Notes under the pieces: generated by a model
What the model saw: only the letters and a program-made list of their open reading frames with translations
What the model was told of the DNA's origin: nothing
Databases searched by the model: none
Position numbers and translations under genes: made by a program
Shown here: positions 9,380 to 54,539 of the stretch, piece after piece
Layout: the number at the start of each line of letters is the position of its first letter
How positions within the stretch are numbered: the stretch's first letter is position 1
Assembly (NCBI GenBank): GCA_963825525.1
Contig: CAWGTN010000002.1
Location: 608,001-672,000, forward strand
DNA: 64,000 nt
Origin: an uncultured Chloroflexia bacterium
GTDB taxonomy: Bacteria > Chloroflexota > Limnocylindria > QHBO01
Direction: 5' to 3'

Positions 9380-9485
9380 CCAGGCGAGTGGGTAACCCGG
9401 CGTAACCGAGGTCGAATGAACCTCCAGGCGCGGACCGATTGCCGGTCGTCGGCCATCGGCTGCAGCACCAGGAGGAGAAATCCGC

Positions 9486-10067
9486 ATGCGCATTCGATCG
9501 TGGACGCCGTTGTCATTGGCAGTCGGGTTGGGGATGCTTGCGTCCCTTGCCCTGACCGGCGTGGTGGCGGCAGCCGAAACGACCCTGACCGCGACGCTCG
9601 CCCCGGTCACCGAGGGTGAGAATCCCGGCAACCCCGACGGTTCCGGAACGGCATCGATCGTCATCGATCCGGCAGCCGGCACCGCGTGCTGGGAGCTGAG
9701 CGTCGACGGCATCGGCCCCGTGCTCCAGTCCCACATTCACGTGGGCGCGGAAGGCGAGTCCGGCGACGTTGTCGTTCCCCTGGACGTTGACGGCTTCGAC
9801 GGGACCAGCGAGGGGTGCATCGAGCCGATGGAGGACGCTGCTGTGCTCCAGCAGATCCTCGACGACCCGGCGGGCTACTACGTCAACGTCCACACCGAGG
9901 ACTTCCCGGCCGGCGCGATCCGCGGCCAGCTAGCCGGCGGCGATGACTCACCGGACACGGCCGTGCCCGTGACCGATGGCTCAACGACCCTGTTCGGGGG
10001 GATCCTGCTGGCCCTGGCGGCGGCCATTGCGCTGCGAGTGTGGCGTCCGCTGGCGACGCGCGACTGA
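9486..10067 (+). CDS. Secreted CHRD-domain protein with sortase-like C-terminal anchor
   Basis: Signal peptide. SHIHVG..GDVVVPL and YYVNVHTEDFPAGAIRGQL (CHRD). C-terminal SPDTA + hydrophobic helix + RVWR. AGGAGG RBS. Confidence 0.85.
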   Translation: MRIRSWTPLSLAVGLGMLASLALTGVVAAAETTLTATLAPVTEGENPGNPDGSGTASIVIDPAAGTACWELSVDGIGPVLQSHIHVGAEGESGDVVVPLDVDGFDGTSEGCIEPMEDAAVLQQILDDPAGYYVNVHTEDFPAGAIRGQLAGGDDSPDTAVPVTDGSTTLFGGILLALAAAIALRVWRPLATRD

Positions 10068-10090: not shown

Positions 10091-10335
10091 GTCGATATAT
10101 CGGCGCGGGGGCACTCCGGGGTGGCACGGTTTGGCCACCCCGGGGCCGGGGGGAGTAGCTGATATTTCGGCCATGCGGTGGCCCGCGGGTCGCGTGGGCG
10201 CCCTGGTGCCGATATTTCGGCGCCCCGGGAACGTGAGGGGCGCATCGAGGCGCCGTCTGAGCGCGGGATGAGCTGAAATATCGGCACCGCGGCGCCCCAG
10301 ACGGTCTCCGGCCACGGATCAGCGGAAATATCGGC
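10091..10335. repeat. Intergenic array of five 14-bp imperfect palindromes (GCYGAWATWTCGGC-like), REP/BIME-like
   Basis: Copies at 10091 (gtcgatatatcggc), 10158 (gctgatatttcggc), 10208 (gccgatatttcggc), 10272 (gctgaaatatcggc) and 10322 (gcggaaatatcggc). Spacing is 67/50/64/50. Confidence 0.85.
10116..10143. terminator. GC-rich hairpin between convergent genes
   Basis: ccggggtggc / gccaccccgg forms a 10-bp perfect stem with an 8-nt loop. No clear U-tract. Confidence 0.45.
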
Positions 10336-10347
10336 GCGCCACGAGGG

Positions 10348-10794
10348 TCAGCGCAAGGTGAGGCGGAAGTAGCGACCCTCGCTCAGGATGTGGCGTCGTG
10401 CGCCGCGGTACAGGAGATTGGCCGGGAACGGCTGTTGCTCGGCGGTGGCCATGATCACCTCGTCACGCTCCGCGCCGAGCGGGAGCGGCACGGCGCTCAC
10501 CTCGATCGGCGCCTCGGGGCGGGGCGCCACGACGGCCTGACCGGCACTGCGCAGGTTGGCCGTCCACGCGACCTCGCCGTTCGGATGGCCGATGTACCAG
10601 GTCCGGTTCACCCGAATGAGCCCGACGAGCACGTTTCGCTGCCGCCCCGTCCGGCGGCCGATAATCGTGACGCGCGAGGTGATGCCCAGCCCCACGCTGA
10701 ACCAGGCCCAGCGCAGAAGCGGATCGAGCACGCGGATGGCGGCGTAGGCGGCCCGGAACACCAGGTTCCAGGCTCGCGACGGACGAGCGTTCAT
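10348..10794 (-). CDS. Deazaflavin (F420)-dependent nitroreductase family (DDN-like) protein
   Basis: TIIGRRTGRQR...WTANLRSAG motifs typical of the split-barrel DDN family. Confidence 0.7.
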   Translation of the reverse strand: MNARPSRAWNLVFRAAYAAIRVLDPLLRWAWFSVGLGITSRVTIIGRRTGRQRNVLVGLIRVNRTWYIGHPNGEVAWTANLRSAGQAVVAPRPEAPIEVSAVPLPLGAERDEVIMATAEQQPFPANLLYRGARRHILSEGRYFRLTLR

Positions 10795-10833
10795 CAGACG
10801 GGATACGTGGCACGCGGCGATCCATACGCCTCG

Positions 10834-11746
10834 TCAGCGGTGCGATCGACGGCGCCGAAGCGTCAGCTGCCGGCCGAGCACGGCGGCACCGGCCAGCGAC
10901 ATGCCGCCACCCAGCACGACCCATGGCAGCGCACCGGACCCGCCGCCCGCGAAGAGGCGTTCCCGAGAGCACGTCCTCGCGCACGCTGGCCGATGGCTCT
11001 GCCCCCTCCGTTGACCCGCTCGTGGCCGCAGGGCTCGGGCCATCCGTCGCCGCACCCGATGGCGGGATGGCCGAACCCGAACTCAGCGGTGACGGAACGA
11101 GAATGGGCGACGCGCGCGGCGCCGATGTTGGACTGGCCGTCGGAGGAGCCGATGGTGGCCGGGCGGTGGACGGCGGCGTTACGACCGGGGTTGCCGTCGG
11201 CCGGTTCGTGGCCGTCGAGGTCGGCATCGGCGTCGCGGTCGGCGTGGGTGGAGGAACCGAGGCGATTGGCGAGGGCGAGGGCGACGGCGAGGGCACGGGA
11301 GTCGCGGTCGACTGGGGCGCGATGACCACGACGGTCGGGCCGGCCAGCGGGACCGGCTTTGGACCCTGCGACACCGTGGCACTGAACGTGACGGGCCAGG
11401 TGCCCTCGGGGAGGGTGGTCGTAGCCTGGTACGTACCGTCATCGGCCTGTCCGCTCACAAGCGCGAGGGCGAGCGACGTGTCGGCGACCTGGGCGCTGAC
11501 CGAGCTGGCTGCGAATCCCTGGTCGCTCAGGTATCGGACGCTGAAGAGGAAGCTTGTCTGCGTCGTACCGGAGCCGGGCGAGACACTGCCTGCGCCGAGG
11601 GTTGCTGCGGCGGCGACGCGCGGCGCGGATCCCAGCCAGATGGACCCGACCGCCAGGATGACGGCGGCCCCGATGAGAACGGACCGATGGGCTGGCCCCA
11701 GCGGTGAGATGGCGCAGGACACTGGGTGATCCACTGTGTGGACCAT
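10834..11746 (-). CDS. Secreted Pro/Thr/Ser-rich surface protein with C-terminal membrane anchor (frameshift ~10960)
   Basis: Signal peptide (LIGAAVILAVGSIWLGSAPRVAAA), a beta-rich domain and a PSPSPS/PTAT linker. The TM + RRRR tail lies in another frame (ORF 10834..11055). Confidence 0.6.
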
Positions 11747-44844: not shown

Positions 44845-47688
44845 ATGACGACCGACGCCGCGCCCCGCGGCCCCGCCACCATCCATCTCGTCCCCCACAC
44901 CCACTGGGATCGCGAGTGGTACCGCCCCTTTCAGAGCTTCCGGATGCAGCTGGTCGACATGGTCGACCGCGTGCTCGACATGCTCGAGGCGGAGCCGAAC
45001 TTCGCCTTCACCCTGGACGGCCAGCTCGCGACCGTCGACGACTACCTGGAGATCCGCCCTGAGCAGACTGAACGGCTGAAGGGACATGTTGCCAGCGGCC
45101 GGCTGGCCATCGGCCCGTGGCTGATCCTCATGGACGAGTTCCTGGTGAGCGGCGAGACGCTGGTCCGCAACCTGGAGATGGGATGGGCGCGCGCCCGAGA
45201 CTTCGGCGAGCCGATGCACGTCGGCTATCTGCCGGACATGTTCGGCCACGTGGCGCAGATGCCCCAGATCCTGCGCCGCGCCGGACTGGCCGATGCCGTG
45301 GTCTGGCGAGGCGTCCCCGCCTCGATTGACAGTCACGCGTTTCGATGGGAGAGCCCCGACGGGTCGTCGGTTCGCGCCGAGTACCTGCCGGTCGGCTACG
45401 GCAACGCGGCCGGCATGTTCGCGGTGCCCGACCGACTCGACGCCGCCGTGGAGCGCTTCATCGCCTGGGGCCGGCCATGGTTCGCCGATGACCCGATGCT
45501 GGCCATGTACGGGGCGGATCACACCGCACCGGTCCCCGAGCTCGCCGCGTTCGTCAGCCGCCTGAACGAGGTCCAGGACGCCAGCCGCATGCAGGTCTCC
45601 ACGCTCGCCGGCTACCTCGACGCTGCTCCAGCGCTATCTCCGGATGCACCGGTCTGGCGCGGCGAGATGCGCTCCGGGGCACGCGCCAACGTTCTCATGG
45701 GCGTGGCCAGCGCACGAATCGACATCAAGCAGGCGGCCGGCCGCGCCGAGACGGCGCTCGAACGGTACGCGGAGCCGATGAGCGCGCTCCACCTGTCGGC
45801 CGAAGGGTGGCCGGCGTCATTCCTGCGACTCGCCTGGCGCCGGGTGGTCGAGAACAGCGCCCACGACTCCATCTGCGGATGCAGCGTGGACCCGGTGGTG
45901 AGCCAGGTGCTCGTTCGCTTCGCCGAGGCCCACCAGGTGGCCGACAATCTCGCTCGCCGGGCAGCGGCGGCGTGCGCGGTGGCCGCCCCAGTCGGCTCCA
46001 TCGTGGCGCTCAACCCCTCACCGGCTCCCCGACGTGACCTCGTGACCGCCGAGCTGCTGGTCCCCGAGGCATGGACCGATGTCGCGCTCGAGCTGGCCGA
46101 CGGCACGCGGGTCGCCACCCAGGAGCTGGACCGCAAGGTTCCGCTGCTGTTCGACGCCGAGATTCGTGGCGACCAAGCGGACGACCTGTTCCGGCGCTTC
46201 CACGGCCGCGAAATCTTCGACCACGCCTGGAACGGGTACCGAATTGACGAGCGCACGATCACGCTCGAGGTGGACGCCGATCCCGATCCCGCGTGGCTGG
46301 ATGTCGACGAGCTGCGCGCCGAGGTCACCGCGGCGATGCGCGCCGCTCCTGACGATGCGTGGCGCGTCCGCATCGTGGCGAGCCCTCGCCGCACGCTCGC
46401 GGCTTCGGTCCCGGCACCCGCCCTCGGCTGGACGGCGGCGCGCGCGGTCCAAGGCTATGGGGACCTCGCGGATGGCGTCCGAACCACGCCGGATGAACGG
46501 ACGCTGGCCAACGGCCTGCTGGAGGTCTCGATCGCGGAAGATGGAACCGTCCGATTGACGACCGCGGACGGCGTGACCGCCGACGGGATCGGCCGCATCG
46601 TGGACGGTGGTGACTTCGGCGACTCGTACAACTACGGTCCGCCACGGGCCGACTCGCTGATCGACACGCCGACCTCCGTTGCGGTGCGGGCTGACCTGCT
46701 CGGACCGGTCCGTGGCCGTCTCGTGGTCACGCGGACCTACGGGTGGCCCTCCGGTCTCGCGCCGGATGGCGGGTCGCGCACCTCCGACAGCCACCTCACC
46801 GAGGTGGTGACCGAGGTGGAGCTGCGCGTCGGCGAGCCGTTCGTGCGCATCGGCATCCGATTCGACAACCAGTCGGACGATCATCGGGTCCGCTTCCACG
46901 TGCCACTGCCACGTTCAGCCGATACGTCCCGGGCGGAAGGCCAGTTCGCCGTCGTCGAGCGTGGAATGACCGGCGAGGGAGGCTACCGAGAGGAGCCACT
47001 GGCCACCTATCCGGCCCACGGCTGGGTCGATGCGGGCGGCATGGCGCTGCTCCTGGGGCACCTATCCGAATACGAGCTGCTCGAGAGCTCGACAGGCTCA
47101 TCGGGTCGCGAGCTGGCCGTCACCCTGCTGCGCTCGACGGGCCTGATCAGCCGCAACGACAATCCGTATCGGCAGGACCCGGCCGGGCCCGAGATGGCCA
47201 TCCCGGCCGCACAGATGCGCGGCCGATGGAGCTTCGAGCTCGCGCTCATGCCACACGGCGGCGACTGGATCGAGGGCGGCGTGGCCGCCGCGGCCGAGCG
47301 CTACCGCCATCCGTTCGTCGTCGCACCCGGGACCTCGGGAGCGGGCGCTGACTGGCCACCCTCGGCGGCCGGGGCCGATGCGCTTCTCCTGACGGGTGAC
47401 CAGGTTGTCCTCAGCTCACTGCGGCGCCGCCCCGATGGCTGGGTCGAGGCGCGGGTGGTGAACCTGGCGTCAGAGCCGCGAGACATCGAGATGGGCCCTG
47501 GTATCCGCGAGGCCCGGGAGGCCGATCTGCACGGGACCGCCGGCGCGACCATCCCGATTTCATCGGGCGCCGCGCTCCGTCTGACACTCGGCGCGGCCGA
47601 GATTCGGACGGTCCAGCTGCGCCGTACCGAGACGGCGCCCTCCAGCGCGGATCTGCTCGACGCGTCCGGACCTCGCCACAGGCCATGA
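44845..47688 (+). CDS. GH38 alpha-mannosidase / mannosylglycerate hydrolase-like
   Basis: VPHTHWDREWY, FTLDGQ, DEFLVSGE, GYLPDMFGH, AHDSICGCS, DFGDSYNY and VTLLRSTG. Confidence 0.92.
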   Translation: MTTDAAPRGPATIHLVPHTHWDREWYRPFQSFRMQLVDMVDRVLDMLEAEPNFAFTLDGQLATVDDYLEIRPEQTERLKGHVASGRLAIGPWLILMDEFLVSGETLVRNLEMGWARARDFGEPMHVGYLPDMFGHVAQMPQILRRAGLADAVVWRGVPASIDSHAFRWESPDGSSVRAEYLPVGYGNAAGMFAVPDRLDAAVERFIAWGRPWFADDPMLAMYGADHTAPVPELAAFVSRLNEVQDASRMQVSTLAGYLDAAPALSPDAPVWRGEMRSGARANVLMGVASARIDIKQAAGRAETALERYAEPMSALHLSAEGWPASFLRLAWRRVVENSAHDSICGCSVDPVVSQVLVRFAEAHQVADNLARRAAAACAVAAPVGSIVALNPSPAPRRDLVTAELLVPEAWTDVALELADGTRVATQELDRKVPLLFDAEIRGDQADDLFRRFHGREIFDHAWNGYRIDERTITLEVDADPDPAWLDVDELRAEVTAAMRAAPDDAWRVRIVASPRRTLAASVPAPALGWTAARAVQGYGDLADGVRTTPDERTLANGLLEVSIAEDGTVRLTTADGVTADGIGRIVDGGDFGDSYNYGPPRADSLIDTPTSVAVRADLLGPVRGRLVVTRTYGWPSGLAPDGGSRTSDSHLTEVVTEVELRVGEPFVRIGIRFDNQSDDHRVRFHVPLPRSADTSRAEGQFAVVERGMTGEGGYREEPLATYPAHGWVDAGGMALLLGHLSEYELLESSTGSSGRELAVTLLRSTGLISRNDNPYRQDPAGPEMAIPAAQMRGRWSFELALMPHGGDWIEGGVAAAAERYRHPFVVAPGTSGAGADWPPSAAGADALLLTGDQVVLSSLRRRPDGWVEARVVNLASEPRDIEMGPGIREAREADLHGTAGATIPISSGAALRLTLGAAEIRTVQLRRTETAPSSADLLDASGPRHRP

Positions 47689-47702: not shown

Positions 47703-48161
47703 GTGCCTTCTCAGGCCCAAATGAACGCAAGCGCACGGAGGATCACGTCGGTGGAGCTGGAGCAGCAGCTGGCATCCGTTCCGCTCCTGGCGGGACTCAA
47801 CAACCGCATTCGCCGTCGCCTGGCCGAGACCGGCAAGCGACGCACCTACGCCGCGGGCGACGAGATCGTTCGCGAGGGCTCGAGCGGCACGGCGCTCTAC
47901 ATCGTCCTCAGCGGTGAGGGGCGCGTCGAGCGCGGCGGCGAACGGCTCGGAAGCGTCAGGTCCGGGGACTTCTTCGGCGAGCTGGCGCTCATCGAGGAGC
48001 ATCCGCGATCCGCATCGGTGATTGCCGAGAGCGAGACCGAGTGCCTCCTCTTCCCGGCATGGGAGTTCACCGCGCTCCTCGACGAGCATCCGGAGATCGC
48101 GGTACCCATCATGCGAGCTCTCATCACACGGCTCCACAAGCGCGAGCACCACGGGGCCTGA
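47703..48161 (+). CDS. Stand-alone cyclic nucleotide-binding domain protein
   Basis: IVREG..LYIVLSG..GDFFGELALI..PRSASV. The start may be 47703 or 47721. Confidence 0.88.
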   Translation: MPSQAQMNASARRITSVELEQQLASVPLLAGLNNRIRRRLAETGKRRTYAAGDEIVREGSSGTALYIVLSGEGRVERGGERLGSVRSGDFFGELALIEEHPRSASVIAESETECLLFPAWEFTALLDEHPEIAVPIMRALITRLHKREHHGA

Positions 48162-48174
48162 TCCGGCCGGACCG

Positions 48175-48879
48175 TTGAGCGAGCGCGTCGTCGTCGAGGT
48201 CGCTGCGAAGCGATCGTTCGCCAGCGCGCTGGATTGGCCCGGCTGGGCCCGCAGCGGTGCATCCGAGGCCGCTGCCATCGAGGCGCTGCTCGGCCACGCG
48301 TCACGCTACGCGCGCGTCGTCGGCCGCACCGACCTCCCGTTCCGGTCGCCTGCCGATGCCACGGCGCTCGAGATCGTCGAGCGGGTCGATGGCGGCAGCA
48401 CCACGGAGTTCGGTGCACCCGGTGCCGTGGCGCTGGCCGACGCGGATGAGCTCAGCAGCGCGGACCTCGAGCGACTCGTCGTCCTGATCCGCGCAGCGTG
48501 GGACGCCTTCGACGCTGCGGCGCAGGCGGCGAGCGGCATCGAGCTGACCACCGGACCGCGTGGCGGGGGCCGCGAGCTCGACAAGATCCTCACGCACGTC
48601 CGCGAGGCGGAGGCCGGCTACCTGGGCATGCTCGGCTCTCGCCCACCCGCCACGAATGACGATCCATCCGAGGCCATGGCCGCAATCCGCGGCGCGTTCA
48701 TCGAGACGCTGACGGCAGTTGCCACCGGCGCCGAGATTCCCAACCCCCGGCGCACCAAGCGTCCGTGGCCCCCGCGCTATGCCGTGCGGCGCGCTGCGTG
48801 GCACGCGCTTGACCACGCCTGGGAGATCGAGGATCGGGCTGGCCTGGCTGCCGACGGCTCTGGGCCACCATCCGACTGA
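48175..48879 (+). CDS. Conserved hypothetical protein (DinB-like C-terminus)
   Basis: FASALDWPGWARSG, GPRGGGR..ILTHVREAE and RRAAWHALDHAWEIEDR. Confidence 0.75.
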   Translation: MSERVVVEVAAKRSFASALDWPGWARSGASEAAAIEALLGHASRYARVVGRTDLPFRSPADATALEIVERVDGGSTTEFGAPGAVALADADELSSADLERLVVLIRAAWDAFDAAAQAASGIELTTGPRGGGRELDKILTHVREAEAGYLGMLGSRPPATNDDPSEAMAAIRGAFIETLTAVATGAEIPNPRRTKRPWPPRYAVRRAAWHALDHAWEIEDRAGLAADGSGPPSD

Positions 48880-48891
48880 ACTATCGGATTC

Positions 48892-49684
48892 TCAGGCCAG
48901 CCGGGTGAGGATCGCCTCCCGATCGAAGATCCAGCTGCCGACGGCCAGCACGAGCCCGATGAGCAGCGCGACCACGAGGTCGCCGATGATCACCTGCTGC
49001 ATGGTGAATGACGCCTGCCCGCTGAAGAATCCGGCGATCGCCACCCCGATCACCGGCAGCACGATGAAGCCGCCGATCTGCTGCGCCGTCCGAGCGTCGT
49101 TCACGCGCGACGACACCACGATCCCCAGCAGCACGCTCAGCAGGCAGATGAGTGGCACCAGGGTCAGCATGGCGACCTTCCAGACGTCGTTGAAGATGAG
49201 CTTCGTCAATGCCGGATCCGCGATCGCGCCGTTGACCAGGCCGTACAGGAGGAAGACGATCCAGGTGGCCAGCACGGCCGGCGCCGCGGCGCTGATCGCT
49301 TTGCCCGCGAGGAGCTCACTGACCTCCATCGGCGTCGCCAGCTGCGGCTCGAGAGACCGAGCCGTCTTCTCGCCGATGACCGACTGGGTGGCGATCGCCA
49401 TCGGCACCATGGCCGGGATGAGGAGGAAATAGGCCATGAAGTTCAGTACGATGAAACCCTGGGCCGCCAGCTTGGGCGAGAGGTCCGGGAACTGGCTGAT
49501 GTACTGCTGAATCTGGCCCATCTGCTGTCGGATCGAGCTCGTTGATCTGGATGAATGCCACGATGCCGGTCGGGATCGAGGCGAAGATGAGGGCCGGAAA
49601 GACCACCGCGCCCAGCAGCAGCCGATTGGCGAGGAGGTCGCGAACCTCCTTGCCGAGCACGGCCGCGATCATCCACGGACGCAT
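48892..49684 (-). CDS. ABC-2 type permease; frameshift ~49525
   Basis: MRPWMIAAVLGKE N-terminus in one frame and SVIGEKTARSLEPQLATP..FDREAILTRL in another. Confidence 0.8.
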
Positions 49685-50631
49685 CAGGCACCTCCCGTCC
49701 CGCGGCGCCGGCCTCGCCGACCAGGTCCAGGTACACCTGCTCGAGGGTGGCCGCCTCCTCGTTGACCGCCACGATCCGCGCCCCTGCCGCCGACAAGCGC
49801 GCGAACGAGCTCCGGATTGTCGCCGCGCGGGTCACGAACCTCGACCCGCAGCGTTCCGTCCACCGCCTGAGCCGCTTCCACGAACGGCAGCTCGGCCAGC
49901 ATGTCCAGGAACGAGGCGGGCCGGCGCGCCCCGACCAGCTCGACGCGGACCTGTGCCGAACGGCCCTGCCGGCGCAGACGGGCCGGCGTGTCCACCAGGA
50001 GCAGCGTGCTGCGCATGATCCCGATGCGGTCGCACAGGCGCTCCGCCTCGTCGAGGTTGTGGGTGCAGACCACGATCGAGCGGCCGGCGTCGCGCAGGGT
50101 GGCCACGAAGTCGCGGACCATCTTGGCCGCCGACGGGTCGAGTGCGCTGGTCGGCTCGTCGAGGTAGACGACCTCCGGCTCGTGGAGCAGGGCGCGGGCG
50201 ATTGCCACCTTCTGCCGCATCCCCTTGCTGAACCCGCCGACCCGGCGGTCGCCGGCATCCGGCAAGCCGACAATCGCCAGGTAGCGATCGACGGCACGAC
50301 GCAGGTTGGCGCCGCGCAGGCCGTAGAGGCGGCCGTAGTACCCGAGGTTCTGGCGCGCCGTCAGCTTGTCGTGCAGGCCGGGGGCCTCGGTGAGGATGCC
50401 GGTCGTCGCCCGGATCCGCTGGGAGTCCGTCGCCGAGCGTCATGCCGTTGATGCGGGCCGGCCCGTCGGACGGCCCGATCAGACCGGCCAGCATGCGCAC
50501 CGAGGTGGTCTTGCCGGCGCCGTTCGGCCCCAGGATGCCGAAGATCTCGCCGTCGCCGACCGTGAAGCTGAGGTCACGCACGGCGGTCGAGCGTCGCGAA
50601 AGCGCTTCGTGAGCCCGATCGACTCGATCAT
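49684..50631 (-). CDS. ABC transporter ATP-binding protein; several frameshifts
   Basis: MIESIGLTKRF, LGPNGAGKTT, FSKGMRQKV..LDEPTSALD..THNLDEAE and EAATLEQVYL lie in successive different frames. Confidence 0.8.
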
Positions 50632-51419
50632 CGGACCAGCGCTCGATCCAGGATCCCGCCGAGGCGAGCCCACACGCGTTCGCCGGCGCCGGGCCGCCCG
50701 TCGCCGGTGAGCGCCCGGTCGAAGGCCCGCGTCCCGCGACGTTCGTCCGCCGCCACCACGCCGTCCGAGAGGCGGACCACGCGGTCCGTCGCTCCGGCGA
50801 TGCCGGCGTCGTGGGTCACGATGATGATCGTCACCCCGCGCTCGCGGTTCAGGCCGCGCAGCGTGCTCATGATGCTCTCCGAGGTGGCCGAGTCGAGCTC
50901 GCCGGTCGGCTCATCGGCCAGGACCACCGCCGGGTCGTTCACCAGGGCGCGCGCGATTGCCACGCGCTGCTGCTCTCCGCCGGACAGCTCGGTCGGGCGA
51001 TGGCCGGCCCGGTCGGCGAGCCCGACCAGCTCGAGCAGCGCCACGGCCTCGCGGCGCGCCCCGCGGCGTCGCGGACCGTAGCGCAGCGGCAGCATGACGT
51101 TCTCGATGGCGGTGAGCGTCGGGATGAGGTTGAACTCCTGGAACACGAAGCCGATGCGCTCTCGGCGAATCGTGGCCAACTCGCCATCGGACGCGCCGAT
51201 GACGGTGCGGCCATCGATCGCCAGCTCCCCGTCGGTCGGTCGCAGGAGGCATCCCAGCAGATCCAGCAGCGTCGTCTTGCCCGAGCCGGATCGGCCCATG
51301 ATCGCCATGAACTCCCCCGCCTCGCACCCGAAGCAGATGCCGTCCACCGCGCGGACCTCGCTCGCGCCGCGCCGGTAGACCTTCCTCAGGTCGGCCGCTT
51401 CCAGGATGACGTCGGTCAT
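50628..51419 (-). CDS. ABC transporter ATP-binding protein (LolD-like)
   Basis: GRSGSGKTT, GFVFQEFNL, LSGGEQQRV and LADEPTGELD. Confidence 0.93.
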   Translation of the reverse strand: MTDVILEAADLRKVYRRGASEVRAVDGICFGCEAGEFMAIMGRSGSGKTTLLDLLGCLLRPTDGELAIDGRTVIGASDGELATIRRERIGFVFQEFNLIPTLTAIENVMLPLRYGPRRRGARREAVALLELVGLADRAGHRPTELSGGEQQRVAIARALVNDPAVVLADEPTGELDSATSESIMSTLRGLNRERGVTIIIVTHDAGIAGATDRVVRLSDGVVAADERRGTRAFDRALTGDGRPGAGERVWARLGGILDRALVR

Positions 51420-51438
51420 CAGGCTGATCGTCCTGCGG

Positions 51439-51616
51439 CTCGATAGATGGAGGGATACGCACGGGAGACGTTCGGGACGTGCGGATCCCGCGATAGATCG
51501 AGTACGTGCTCGCAGGAGCGACCCGCCGGCGCGGCGTCCACGCGTGGCTGCATCCCATATATCGCGGGATTCGCACCCGGGCGCACCGTCACGTGAAATT
51601 CCCGCGATCCGTCGAA
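51439..51616. repeat. Intergenic array of four ~24-bp repeats in alternating orientation (two hairpin doublets), REPIN/BIME-like
   Basis: Cores cgatagatgg 51441, cgatagatcg 51491, ccatatatcg 51555 and cgatccgtcg 51605, spaced 50/64/50. Arms gggatNcgcac / gtgcgNatccc. Confidence 0.8.
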
Positions 51617-51633
51617 GCGAGTCAGGGGGCTCA

Positions 51634-52798
51634 TCACGTGCTCCGCAGCGCGGTCACGGGGTCGAGCCGCGCGGCGCGCAGCGCCGGATAGATGCCGGCC
51701 AGTGCACCCAGGATCGTGGCGAACAGGAAGCTCCGCAGCAGGAGCCAGGGGGTGAGGAGGAACACGCTCGTCCCCGATCCGGCCGTCTGCGCGTTGAGGA
51801 TCAGCACGAGCAGCGCCCCGAGCCCCAGCCCGAGGAGCCCGCCGATGGCCCCGAGCAGCGTCGCCTCGATGAGGAACTCGCGCAGGATGGCCCGTGTCGG
51901 AGCGCCGACCGCCTTCTTGATGCCGATCTCGCGCACGCGCTCGCTGACCGTCATCACCATCGTGTTGATGACCGAGAGCCCGCCGACGATGACCGCGATG
52001 ACGCTGGCCCCCACGATGATGAGGTTGAAGACGATGCTGGCCTGGCCGATCTGGTCGGCGACCTCCTCCGGGGTGACGGCACGCACGCCATCGACGGCGT
52101 CGGTGATCGCGGCGGCGATCGCATCGGCCTCGCCAAGGTCCTCGGGGAATACCTCGATCTGGGTCGCCAGGGCATCGGTCCGTTCCTGGAAGGCGTCCGG
52201 CACGGACGCCACGTAGATCTGCTGCGCATCGGCCAGTGGCACGTAGGCGATCTTGTCGGGGAAGGTCAGCGTCCGCTCGAGCACCCCGACGACGTCGAAC
52301 GACTCGTCGCGCATCGTGAACGTGTCGCCGACTCGCAGATCGTAGCGCTCCGCCAGGTCAGCGCCGATCACGGTGACGCCGTGCTCATCGGCCCCCAGCA
52401 GCCGGCCGGCGTCCAGCCGAAGCTCGACCGCCTCGTCGTACCACGTCTCGGGCTCGATGCCGGTGAGGAGCTCAGGGATGTCGAACCCGCCGACCTCGTC
52501 CGGGTTCAGCGAGCGTCTGGAGCACCGGCGTGGCGCGATCGACGCCGGGCAGCTCCTCGATCTTCTCGACCAGGTCGCGCGTGACCGGCCGCGAGCTGGC
52601 CTGGAACCCTGACGCGGCGCCCTCGTCGAACACGAAGATGCGCGTTCGGAAGTACTCGTCGCCACCGTCCACCAGGACGTTGAGCTTCTCGGCCAGCGCC
52701 CCCATCACCGTCAGCGCGAACACGCCGATCACGATCCCGAGAATCGTGAGGGCGGTGCGCAGCGGACGCCGCCAGATATTGCTGATGGCTTCGTTCAT
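51634..52798 (-). CDS. MacB/FtsX-like ABC permease; frameshift ~52515
   Basis: NIWRRPLRTALTILGIVIGV N-terminus, then NTMVMTVSERVREIGIKKAVGA and YPALRAARLDPVTALR in a second frame. Confidence 0.85.
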
Positions 52799-52886
52799 GG
52801 GCTACGCGGATGCTAGCCGGGATCGGCGCTCGCCGCCCGAGGACCACCGGCGCGATCGATGCGGCCATTCGGATACGCTGGCGGGC

Positions 52887-53441: not shown

Positions 53442-53453
53442 ATGCAGCGTCAC

Positions 53454-54539
53454 ATGACACTCGAGCTCGACGATCCACAGGCGGCCGCGGAAGACGCGGG
53501 GCTTCGCTACGTGTCCGACCTGATGCCGGGCGTTCGCCGTCGACGCGCCGGGAAGGGCTTCACGTACATCGGGCCGGACGGCAGCAGGATCACCGACGAC
53601 GCTCGGATCGCCTGGTTCCGTCGCCTCGCCATCCCCCCGGCCTGGACGGACGTGTGGATCTCTCCGGTCAAGAACGGGCACATCCAGGCCATCGGACGCG
53701 ACGCGCGGGGACGAAAGCAATACCGCTATCACCCGCGATGGCGCGAGGTGCGCGACCAGGCGAAGTACGGCCGGTTGATCGAGTTCGCGCGGGCACTACC
53801 CCGGATCCGGCGTCGGACCGAGCGCGACCTTCGACGCCGGGGCCTTCCGCGCGAGAAGGTGCTGGCACTCGTGATCCGGCTGCTCGAGGCCTCGCTCATC
53901 CGGGTCGGCAACGACGAGTACGCGCGAGAGAACCGCAGCTACGGCCTGTCGACGATGCGCGACCGCCACGTCGAGGTTCGTGGCGCGCGGATCCGGTTCC
54001 GGTTCCGCGGCAAGTCGGGGAAGGAGCACGAGGTCGAAGTGCTCGACCGCCGGCTGGCCCGCCTCGTCAAGCAATGCCAGGAGCTGCCCGGCCAGGAGCT
54101 CTTCCAGTACCTGGACTCCGACGGGGCTCGGCAGGATGTGACGTCGGGCGACGTCAACGACTATCTGCGCGAGGCCAGCGGTGACGACTTCACTGCCAAG
54201 GACTTCAGGACGTGGGCGGGCACCGTCGCCGCATCCATGGCACTCCAGGAGTTCGTCGAGATCGACGACGAGGCCGGACGAAAGAAGGCGATCGTGCGGG
54301 CAATCGAGGACGTGGCCGAACAGCTCGGCAACACGCCGACCGTGTGTCGGGCCTGCTACGTCCATCCGGACGTGCTCGACTCCTATCTGGACGGGACGTT
54401 GATCGAAGCACTGTCCGAGCGTGCCCGTGGGATCGGGCGCGGGGCCCACGCCCTCCGGCGCGAGGAAGCCGCCGTGCTGGGGCTCCTCCAGGCACGTCTG
54501 GCACGCGAACGCCGAGCGGGACGCCGCGAAGCCGCCTGA
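53454..54539 (+). CDS. DNA topoisomerase IB (bacterial, poxvirus-like)
   Basis: LAIPPAWTDVWI, GRKQYRYH, IRVGNDEY (Arg), FRGKSGK (Lys), AKDFRTW and LGNTPTVCRACYVHP (Tyr). Confidence 0.93.
   Translation: MTLELDDPQAAAEDAGLRYVSDLMPGVRRRRAGKGFTYIGPDGSRITDDARIAWFRRLAIPPAWTDVWISPVKNGHIQAIGRDARGRKQYRYHPRWREVRDQAKYGRLIEFARALPRIRRRTERDLRRRGLPREKVLALVIRLLEASLIRVGNDEYARENRSYGLSTMRDRHVEVRGARIRFRFRGKSGKEHEVEVLDRRLARLVKQCQELPGQELFQYLDSDGARQDVTSGDVNDYLREASGDDFTAKDFRTWAGTVAASMALQEFVEIDDEAGRKKAIVRAIEDVAEQLGNTPTVCRACYVHPDVLDSYLDGTLIEALSERARGIGRGAHALRREEAAVLGLLQARLARERRAGRREAA

Follow-up and report, generated by a model that had tools for sequence, protein, structure and literature searches.

Knowledge of small palindromic repeats comes mainly from Proteobacteria and cyanobacteria, and sequence identity is the usual means of recognising them. 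In the account given by Di Nocera et al. (2013, PMC3733652), repetitive extragenic palindromes (REPs) have stems of 5–13 bp and form dimers whose partners lie 20–100 bp apart, with spacers similar in length but different in sequence; the two partners can form hairpins of their own or fold together into one large stem-loop, and intergenic regions flanked by genes that converge or run in the same direction are preferred. Mycobacterial interspersed repetitive units (MIRUs), as described in PMC12548453, insert at start codons within operons and carry an internal open reading frame (ORF) that is coupled at −4 nt to the downstream gene. Here we analyse array B, an intergenic palindromic array in a 64,000-nt stretch of DNA (the window) from an uncultured Chloroflexia bacterium of the class Limnocylindria (assembly GCA_963825525.1, contig CAWGTN010000002.1, positions 608,001–672,000), and compare it with a second array of the window, array A, and with related genomes. 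The element consists of four 10-nt palindromic boxes, CGAT-NN-ATCG, whose starts lie 50, 62–64 and 50 nt apart, and this spacing is better kept than the sequence between the boxes.

Array B fills the gap of 214 nt (51420–51633) between the TGA stop codon of a permease gene (51636–51634, minus strand) and the ATG of an ABC transporter ATPase gene (51419–51417), in agreement with the initial annotation, which had put the gap at about 215 nt from the sequence alone. The array is non-coding, is assigned no strand, and is predicted to fold over ~190 nt into one long, imperfect hairpin. Its four boxes are B1 (CGATAGATGG, 51441–51450), B2 (CGATAGATCG, 51491–51500), which matches the box pattern CGATNNATCG exactly, B3 (CCATATATCG, 51555–51564), which is followed by CGGGATTCGCAC, an extension also carried by a box in the related locus L011, and B4 (CGATCCGTCG, 51605–51614), the weakest of the four. 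Together the boxes match 29 of the 32 specified positions of CGATNNATCG, and their starts (51441, 51491, 51555 and 51605) are spaced 50/64/50. Across the family, the flanks of the boxes vary but complement each other, often lengthening the box to 14 nt (GCCGAT..ATCGGC, CTCGAT..ATCGAG) with a stem of ~5 bp. The alternating orientation described in the initial annotation is visible as two local inverted repeats, one at 51439–51502 (arms 51439–51463 and 51478–51502, 25 nt, 80% complementary, 14-nt loop) and one at 51561–51608 (arms 51561–51576 and 51593–51608, 16 nt, 81% complementary, 16-nt loop). When array B is compared directly with itself at a distance of 114 nt, the length of the unit proposed in the initial annotation, only 53 of 114 positions match.

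Array A (10158–10335, no strand assigned) contains four GCCGATATTTCGGC-type boxes that start at 10160, 10210, 10274 and 10324, again with 50/64/50 spacing, and match CGATNNATCG at 25 of 32 positions. It sits between the 3′ ends of two convergent genes, a CHRD-domain gene (9420–10067, plus strand) and a minus-strand gene (10348–10833), and has 64-nt arms that are 70% complementary. A fifth box, A0 (GTCGATATATCGGC, 10091–10104), lies at 10093, 67 nt before A1. Outside the boxes we found no similarity between the arrays: the best local alignments in the two orientations scored 16 and 21, within the range of 200 shuffles (mean 18.6, maximum 29), and the in-register identity of 37% equals that at other offsets. 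The observation of the initial annotation was therefore correct, since A and B have the same 50/64/50 boxes while the rest of the two arrays, including the flanking arms, is no more alike than shuffled sequence. Just past the CHRD-domain gene, between A0 and A1, lies a perfect 10-bp GC-rich hairpin (CCGGGGTGGC/GCCACCCCGG, 8-nt loop, 10116–10143), which could be the terminator of that gene; no T-run follows it.

For comparison, a search of genome contigs with the permease gave 65 loci, of which 44 (L001–L044) are close relatives with 72–91% identity, nearly all labelled as metagenome-assembled genomes (MAGs) of Limnocylindria or Chloroflexota. The window's own genome is absent from the 65 loci, and each relative contributes ~20 kb of the region. 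Taken alone, the box is no more frequent in the window than chance predicts (4 exact matches, 4.24 expected), so the signal of the family lies in the arrangement of the boxes. We scored CGATNNATCG at four positions, with the first distance varied over 30–80 nt and the second over 30–100 nt, in 690 kb (the window and L001–L044), and required at least 26 of 32 matches. The cell (50,64) contained 10 four-box sets, the next cell, (64,50), contained 4, and the mean over the 3621 cells was 0.013. When 1–2 nt of slack and at least 25 of 32 matches were allowed, we found 15 four-box sets in 626 kb of Limnocylindria loci, some of them overlapping registers in longer arrays (L011, L023), 2 in the 64 kb of the window, and none in 355 kb from other taxa (L045–L065). 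Of 20 local shuffles of the Limnocylindria loci and window, 19 gave no set and one gave a single set. Two further distances between boxes, 146 and 58 nt, traced back to the conserved coding sequence of the second ATPase of the operon and were set aside as not being repeats.

Four independent sites, spread over the window and nine related genomes, show the 50/62–64/50 spacing, which is held within 1–2 nt. The first site is array A, and the second is the permease–ATPase junction (the window, L002, L007, L010 and L017). The third lies at the end of an ABC-2 permease gene that faces a convergent gene, with spacings of 50/64/50 in L014, 50/62/50 in L009, 50/63/50 in two sets in L027, and 50/64/50/50/64 over six boxes in L023. 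At the fourth, in L011, two tandem sets (51/63/51 and 50/63/51) stand between same-direction genes. All four sites thus lie between convergent (A, ABC-2) or same-direction (B, L011) genes. A profile built from the five junction copies found the arrays in L023 (E = 1.5e-5) and in L011 (E = 1.4e-4); the latter match is in register, as it covers profile positions 3–184, the whole length of the array. Some flanks recur in non-orthologous copies: ATCGCGGGATTC follows a box both in B3 of the window and in L011, and GTGGCC stands a few bases past boxes in array A, L009 and L027. The arrays end at 4–8 boxes, with box orientation inconsistent between arrays, and the unit that repeats is the four-box set of ~175–200 nt, not 114 nt, sometimes duplicated in tandem (L011, L027, L023). 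None of these copies showed random spacing, and the claim of the initial annotation that the geometry of the family is more conserved than its sequence was borne out.

Several further sequences came up in the same searches. The junction profile also matched the window at 46819–46864, within a GH38 gene, which we dismissed as a chance palindrome. The 3′ part of this GH38 alpha-mannosidase gene contains another palindrome, CCCGATTTCATCGGG (47556–47570), which is box-like with a 3-nt centre and is probably unrelated to the four-box family. In L011, a G-rich run of the GGGTGGGTGGGT type (11130–11162) lies directly upstream of the two tandem sets, and at the start of the locus (120–240) short degenerate direct repeats, GGATCGCGG, GAATCGCGG and GGGTCGCG, give a weak match to the junction profile (E = 0.003).

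We tested three structures on the five junction copies, using slid pairing partners and shuffles as controls. A long nested hairpin, in which the outer boxes (1 and 4) pair with each other, as do the inner ones (2 and 3), has 59 pairs, with 83.1% of alignment cells paired and compensatory changes at 18 pairs, a result reached by none of 500 shuffles; with the partners slid by 1–3 columns the values were 30–46% and 3–10. The two local hairpins of ~64 nt proposed in the initial annotation (50 pairs) had 69.2% of cells paired and 11 compensatory pairs, reached by 31 of 500 shuffles, and a self-hairpin at each box (20 pairs) had 74% and 3, reached by 11 of 500. All three structures exceeded the slid controls, and the long nested hairpin is the best supported, in a comparison that is uneven in that this structure was predicted from the same alignment and was allowed bulges. 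The minimum-energy fold of array B and the cross-species consensus alike gave one long hairpin instead of two separate ones. From copy to copy the spacers change in sequence, whereas their length and mutual complementarity are retained, and the ~190 nt can therefore fold as one long imperfect hairpin.

The strength of folding differs among copies, with sense-strand z scores of −1.3 for the window, −1.5 for L017, −3.5 for L007, −3.6 for L002 and −4.0 for L010; for array A, z = −4.76. We found no strand preference among the five junction copies, as the better strand differs by copy and the sense strand folds better in three of the five. This symmetry fits a palindrome acting at the level of DNA at least as well as a strand-specific RNA.

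We then compared the permease–ATPase junction among the 44 relatives, with gap lengths extrapolated from tblastn alignments. The gap is at most 43 nt in 37 of them, and usually the two genes overlap (ACG-TGA-TG), while in the other seven it is 184–250 nt. Four of the seven long gaps (L002, L007, L010 and L017) hold a homologue of array B, with 50/64/50 or 49/64/50 spacing. In the remaining three (L013, L022 and L038) we saw neither clear boxes nor excess folding (z = −0.64, +1.05 and −1.01), and we leave their content unclassified, as either decayed copies or unrelated sequence. One junction with a gap of 43 nt (L033, 10877–10919) retains a single box, CTCGACACATCGAG, together with both ends of an L010-type element; this remnant apparently arose by an internal deletion of ~155 nt between repeated boxes. 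The presence/absence polymorphism that the initial annotation had asked about thus amounts to four relatives with the element, one with a single-box remnant, 37 with short gaps, among which the remnant is counted, and the three with unclassified long gaps.

The ABC-2 site varies in a similar manner. Its gap is 12–33 nt in L001, L017, L020, L021, L025 and, nominally, the window; 56–84 nt in L033 and L011; ~200–290 nt in L007, L009, L014, L019 and L026; 447 nt in L027; and longer in L016, L018 and L041. In the window, the end of the ABC-2 permease gene carries a remnant of a four-box set (48836–48891, no strand assigned), consisting of one box-like palindrome and TGGTGGCC, followed by the conserved right end; relatives have intact sets there. 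As the stop codon of the convergent ORF (48022–48879) falls inside this remnant, the annotated C-terminus of that ORF is probably derived from the repeat.

The history of the junction was examined on a gene tree of the permease and ATPase DNA from 33 loci and the window, which leaves out 11 loci with incomplete genes (L006, L015, L019, L023, L031, L034, L035, L036, L039, L042 and L043). L002, L007, L017, L022, L010, L033 and L044 form one clade, starred on the tree, and the window falls in the starred sister clade with five loci that lack the element (L003, L004, L008, L009 and L027). Holding these five empty sisters together, a group picked after seeing the tree, costs 2.6 log-likelihood units (p-AU, from the approximately unbiased test, 0.43), so that the tree does not reject a single loss among them, nor a history of one gain and a few later losses. 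Placing the window in the other clade, a grouping likewise picked after seeing the tree, was borderline (p-AU 0.0505). The start of the ATPase also differs among these genomes: it reads M-x-D-V-I-L in the element-bearing genomes (in the window at 51417–51408) and in the element-free L044, and M-P/A/T-I-L in the empty sister genomes of the window. Two codons (GACGTn) thus travel with the filled state, which may be a trace of imprecise deletion or of recombination at the junction.

The element is 76–82% identical among L007, L010 and L017, and 46–56% between these, L002 and the window. In the diverged orthologous copies, the boxes are 62–72% identical and the spacers 42–54%, and the sole change in length is 1 nt, in L002. 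Among L007, L010 and L017 the element differs at 18–26% of sites, compared with 29–42% at the third codon positions of the flanking genes; the copies are therefore old and have changed more slowly than synonymous sites, with their length kept. They look largely vertically inherited, without recent amplification. The initial annotation had proposed that the family may have been amplified by a trans-acting nuclease or transposase; of this, the existence of the family stands, while the copies at hand do not show recent amplification.

With moderate confidence, we read array B as one copy of an old, non-coding family of palindromic elements that spans the uncultured soil and freshwater class Limnocylindria (Chloroflexota), is of the kind represented by REPs, bacterial interspersed mosaic elements (BIMEs) or miniature inverted-repeat transposable elements (MITEs), would be recognised through its boxes, and may be tolerated here because it preserves coupling. 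To judge from the comparison of junctions, the element would be an ancient insertion placed precisely at TGATG, where the stop of the permease gene and the start of the ATPase gene overlapped. It would then have been inherited in some lineages and, in others, removed or cut to a single box, probably by deletion between repeated boxes. The boxes may be recognition sites of a sequence-specific, probably dimeric, DNA-binding enzyme or other protein acting on duplex or hairpin DNA, and the architecture of this putative protein would set the spacing; it is on these proposed properties that the analogy with REP, BIME and REPIN (hairpin-forming REP doublet) or MITE families is based.

Tolerance at the junction would depend on the frame that crosses it. 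A bridging ORF of 72 codons (51419–51637, minus strand) shares bases with both neighbours, its GTG/ATG start with the permease stop and its TGA with the ATPase ATG, and is open without resembling a protein gene. In all five element-bearing junctions, the gap is crossed without interruption by the frame whose stop overlaps the ATPase start (ATGA, GTGA or TGATG); this frame begins with an ATG that overlaps the permease stop in four copies and with an ATG ~14 nt further in L002. A shuffled gap is open in this frame with P = 0.17–0.21 per copy, and our own multiplication over about three independent lineages gives a chance of ~0.007, which is no more than suggestive. The open frame would run from the old start codon at the permease stop to the overlap with the ATPase start and, because it stays open through the element, ribosomes could still be handed to the ATPase, as proposed for MIRUs. 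When transcribed, the hairpin may in addition alter the stability of the upstream mRNA in the fashion of REPs.

Several observations weigh against this reading. The tree requires at least three gains or losses of the element. No clean target-site duplication was found; TGATGA borders the window copy and shorter GATG-like repeats border the others, but this motif is not diagnostic, because it is also the ancestral stop/start overlap. Arrays A and B have only the box in common, with no visible recent mobility, while populations of REPINs and MITEs usually hold near-identical copies. The REP tag, GTAG or CGTC, is not conserved: GTAG precedes only box A1, and CGTC stands after some last boxes at one syntenic site. 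A scan of 55 ORFs against Pfam, which was limited to the window, returned no transposase, no family of the RAYT (REP-associated tyrosine transposase, IS200-like Y1) type and no other candidate partner. On its sense strand the window copy has only a weak fold (z = −0.96 to −1.3, compared with −2.67 on the other strand). Finally, the spacing is kept despite ~50% divergence of the spacers, which suggests selection and agrees with a role for the host no less than with a selfish element.

The four-box sets could also be substrates or platforms of a dedicated Limnocylindria protein or complex that reads four boxes at fixed distances on folded or looped DNA, a reading that we regard as possible but give clearly less weight. 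The spacing would then be under direct purifying selection, and the sequence between the boxes would be free to drift as long as it stayed complementary. If this were so, the protein would represent a new partnership between a repeat and a protein, not merely another REP family; the partner could be a recombinase or an enzyme of the HUH type whose substrate is a hairpin with four sites, or else an architectural system that has been domesticated.

Somewhat less probable still, in our estimate, are immobile platforms that serve the host by binding a chromosomal protein of double-stranded DNA (a nucleoid, gyrase-type or bridging protein), with the spacing under purifying selection. The boxes themselves invite this reading: two conserved half-sites, CGAT and ATCG, a free central dinucleotide and an orientation that is not conserved are what one would expect of a dimeric protein site more than of pairing alone. 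The higher identity of boxes than of spacers in the diverged copies, the spacing held to 1–2 nt at four sites and the lack of strand preference in folding energy also agree with it, and IHF, gyrase and DNA polymerase I are reported to bind BIMEs (PMC3184786). A site on duplex DNA, however, needs no complementary spacers, yet compensatory changes keep the hairpin; moreover, the sets are missing from most orthologous sites and decay into single-box remnants, and by our own arithmetic spacings of 50 and 64 bp do not put the four boxes on one face of the helix.

Alternatively, array B might act in cis as an RNA of the operon, its hairpin setting the ratio of permease to ATPase by way of mRNA stability or processing, or by masking the ribosome-binding site of the ATPase, which we consider unlikely. 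The element would be part of the operon transcript, compensatory changes are seen in the long hairpin, and REPs are described as acting in this way in the his and mal operons (references in PMC3184786). In the window, L007 and L017, the 3′ half of the last box contributes a GAGG-like stretch that lies 8–11 nt ahead of the ATPase start. By hand count, the sense-strand consensus has ~31 G-U and ~14 A-C cells, a count that is biased because the structure was predicted on the sense strand. On the other hand, 37 of the 44 orthologous operons do without the element, and array A and the ABC-2 site show the same architecture between genes that converge. The better folding of the sense strand in only three of five copies, with z from −1.3 to −4.0, also speaks against a function of the RNA, as does the failure to find an Rfam family or a terminator- or promoter-like site.

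We think it very improbable that the gap encodes a small protein of the transporter, of 72 amino acids (51419–51637), and have rejected such a gene. The ORF fits the gap exactly and overlaps both neighbours, and its equivalent is open in all five copies, as would be expected of a gene. However, the G+C content of third codon positions (GC3) in the gap is 0.59–0.70 in any frame and 0.69 in the bridging ORF, compared with 0.84–0.89 in the flanking genes and 0.80–0.92 in the genes of the window. Differences among L007, L010 and L017 are spread evenly over the three codon positions in the gap (14/17/15, 10/17/10 and 14/17/21), in contrast to the third-position excess in the flanking genes (25/15/84 for the ATPase and 8/8/59 for the permease), and the bridging peptides are not conserved between the window and these three relatives. 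Neither the ORF nor the gap has a Pfam match, and 37 of the 44 orthologous operons have no room for such a gene. The conserved protein-coding ORF that would have contradicted the initial annotation was thus not seen.

That arrays A and B share their spacing by coincidence, the boxes having been picked after the fact in unrelated GC-rich palindromic regions, might be argued from the lack of enrichment of the box alone in the window, the poor match of B4 and the absence of other sequence shared by A and B, but 10 sets at (50,64) against a mean of 0.013, none in other taxa and at most one in shuffles, and the same spacing in nine further genomes leave this with practically no probability.

The surroundings of array B offer some further observations. 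The window as a whole has 68% G+C, and scans of the array B gap for promoter and terminator consensus sequences found no site. The ATPase downstream of the array has 263 amino acids (50628–51419, minus strand). The FtsX/MacB-type permease upstream is split over two frames of the minus strand, with its C-terminal frame at 51634–52665 and its N-terminal part at 52472–52801. The break lies near 52500–52512, where the window reads CTCGCTGAAC, one base more than the L027 orthologue, CTGCTCAAC, and there is no homopolymer run; either a real pseudogene or an assembly error would account for it. The second ABC ATPase of the operon is split as well (49684–50581, minus strand), with positions 2–51 of the ABC_tran family in the frame 49832–50581 and positions 53–137 in 49684–50439. 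Two frameshifts within 3 kb, in a window whose long genes are intact elsewhere, suggest that the array B operon may be decaying in this genome. The statement of the initial annotation that the other genes of the operon overlap is thus roughly right for the orthologous operons, but in the window the permease and the second ATPase are each broken by a frameshift. About 2 kb from array B lies a gene for a bacterial type IB topoisomerase (Topoisom_I, Top1B_N_bact; 53442–54539, plus strand).

Database searches assigned the arrays to no described family. Rfam 15, at the gathering threshold, reported two tRNAs only in the whole window, and permissive scans of both arrays gave at best 18.3 bits against a cut-off of 268 bits. 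A blastn search with both arrays found no match in a plasmid collection, and a literature search of limited reach, on Limnocylindria repeats and on Chloroflexi with REPIN or RAYT, found no description of a four-box family. The defining character of the family is a ruler, 50/64/50 to within 1–2 nt across species, with spacers that fall to about 45–55% identity. Such families may be under-reported in GC-rich uncultured lineages, because similarity searches would miss them. The strict geometry also offers a handle on the recognising protein, through genes whose occurrence follows the number of four-box sets across MAGs. For annotation, the consequence in Limnocylindria MAGs is that the elements give rise to spurious small ORFs and make operons look as if they had gaps.

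Among known systems, the arrays resemble CRISPR in having short, partly palindromic repeats with spacers fixed in length and variable in sequence. They differ from it in their alternating spacings of 50 and 64 nt, their mutually complementary spacers, the small number of boxes (4–8) and the small size of the boxes (10–14 nt), and no Cas family was found among the 55 ORFs of the window that were scanned. MITE, ERIC, Correia and RPE elements are closer: as characterised in PMC3184786 they are 100–200 nt long, have inverted-repeat arms, are present or absent at orthologous sites, and are tolerated in or beside transcription units. Inverted arms, possibly terminal, are seen here in the 70% complementary 64-nt arms of array A and in the long nested hairpin of B and its orthologous copies. 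Unlike in MITEs, we found no clear terminal inverted repeat with a target duplication, and nothing outside the boxes is conserved family-wide. To our knowledge, the four-box family has no parent insertion sequence.

The family also resembles REPs and BIMEs. According to PMC3733652, these too are short, GC-flanked extragenic palindromes between convergent or same-direction genes, occur singly, in pairs or in clusters, and in some cases lie between cistrons in operons; their partners are 20–100 bp apart, with some spacers similar in length yet different in sequence. The REP palindrome is imperfect and 20–40 bp long, with the stems of 5–13 bp described there; our boxes are 10–14 nt, and their stem of ~5 bp is at the lower end of that stem range. 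REP and BIME families number tens to hundreds of copies in a genome. What sets the Limnocylindria arrays apart is the fixed four-box unit with two alternating spacer lengths, kept to 1–2 nt across species; BIME linkers are conserved motifs, whereas the linkers here keep their length and not their sequence. REPINs, in the description of Bertels and Rainey (2011, PMC3116915), are inverted REP pairs that form hairpins, are non-autonomous, and are said to persist vertically over the long term, all of which recalls the present family. They have two boxes, however, and are similar in sequence within a genome, while here there are four boxes and the two window copies share the box only.

At the permease–ATPase junction, there is a parallel with MIRUs. 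As in the MIRUs described in PMC12548453, all five junction copies have a same-strand ORF that overlaps the downstream start. MIRUs consist of direct tandem units of 40–100 bp and belong to a different phylum, whereas array B is a four-box hairpin, and no sequence relation between the two would be expected. The junction copy separates two genes that formerly overlapped while an open, coupled frame is retained through it, and it would provide another, independent instance of the strategy that has been put forward for MIRUs.

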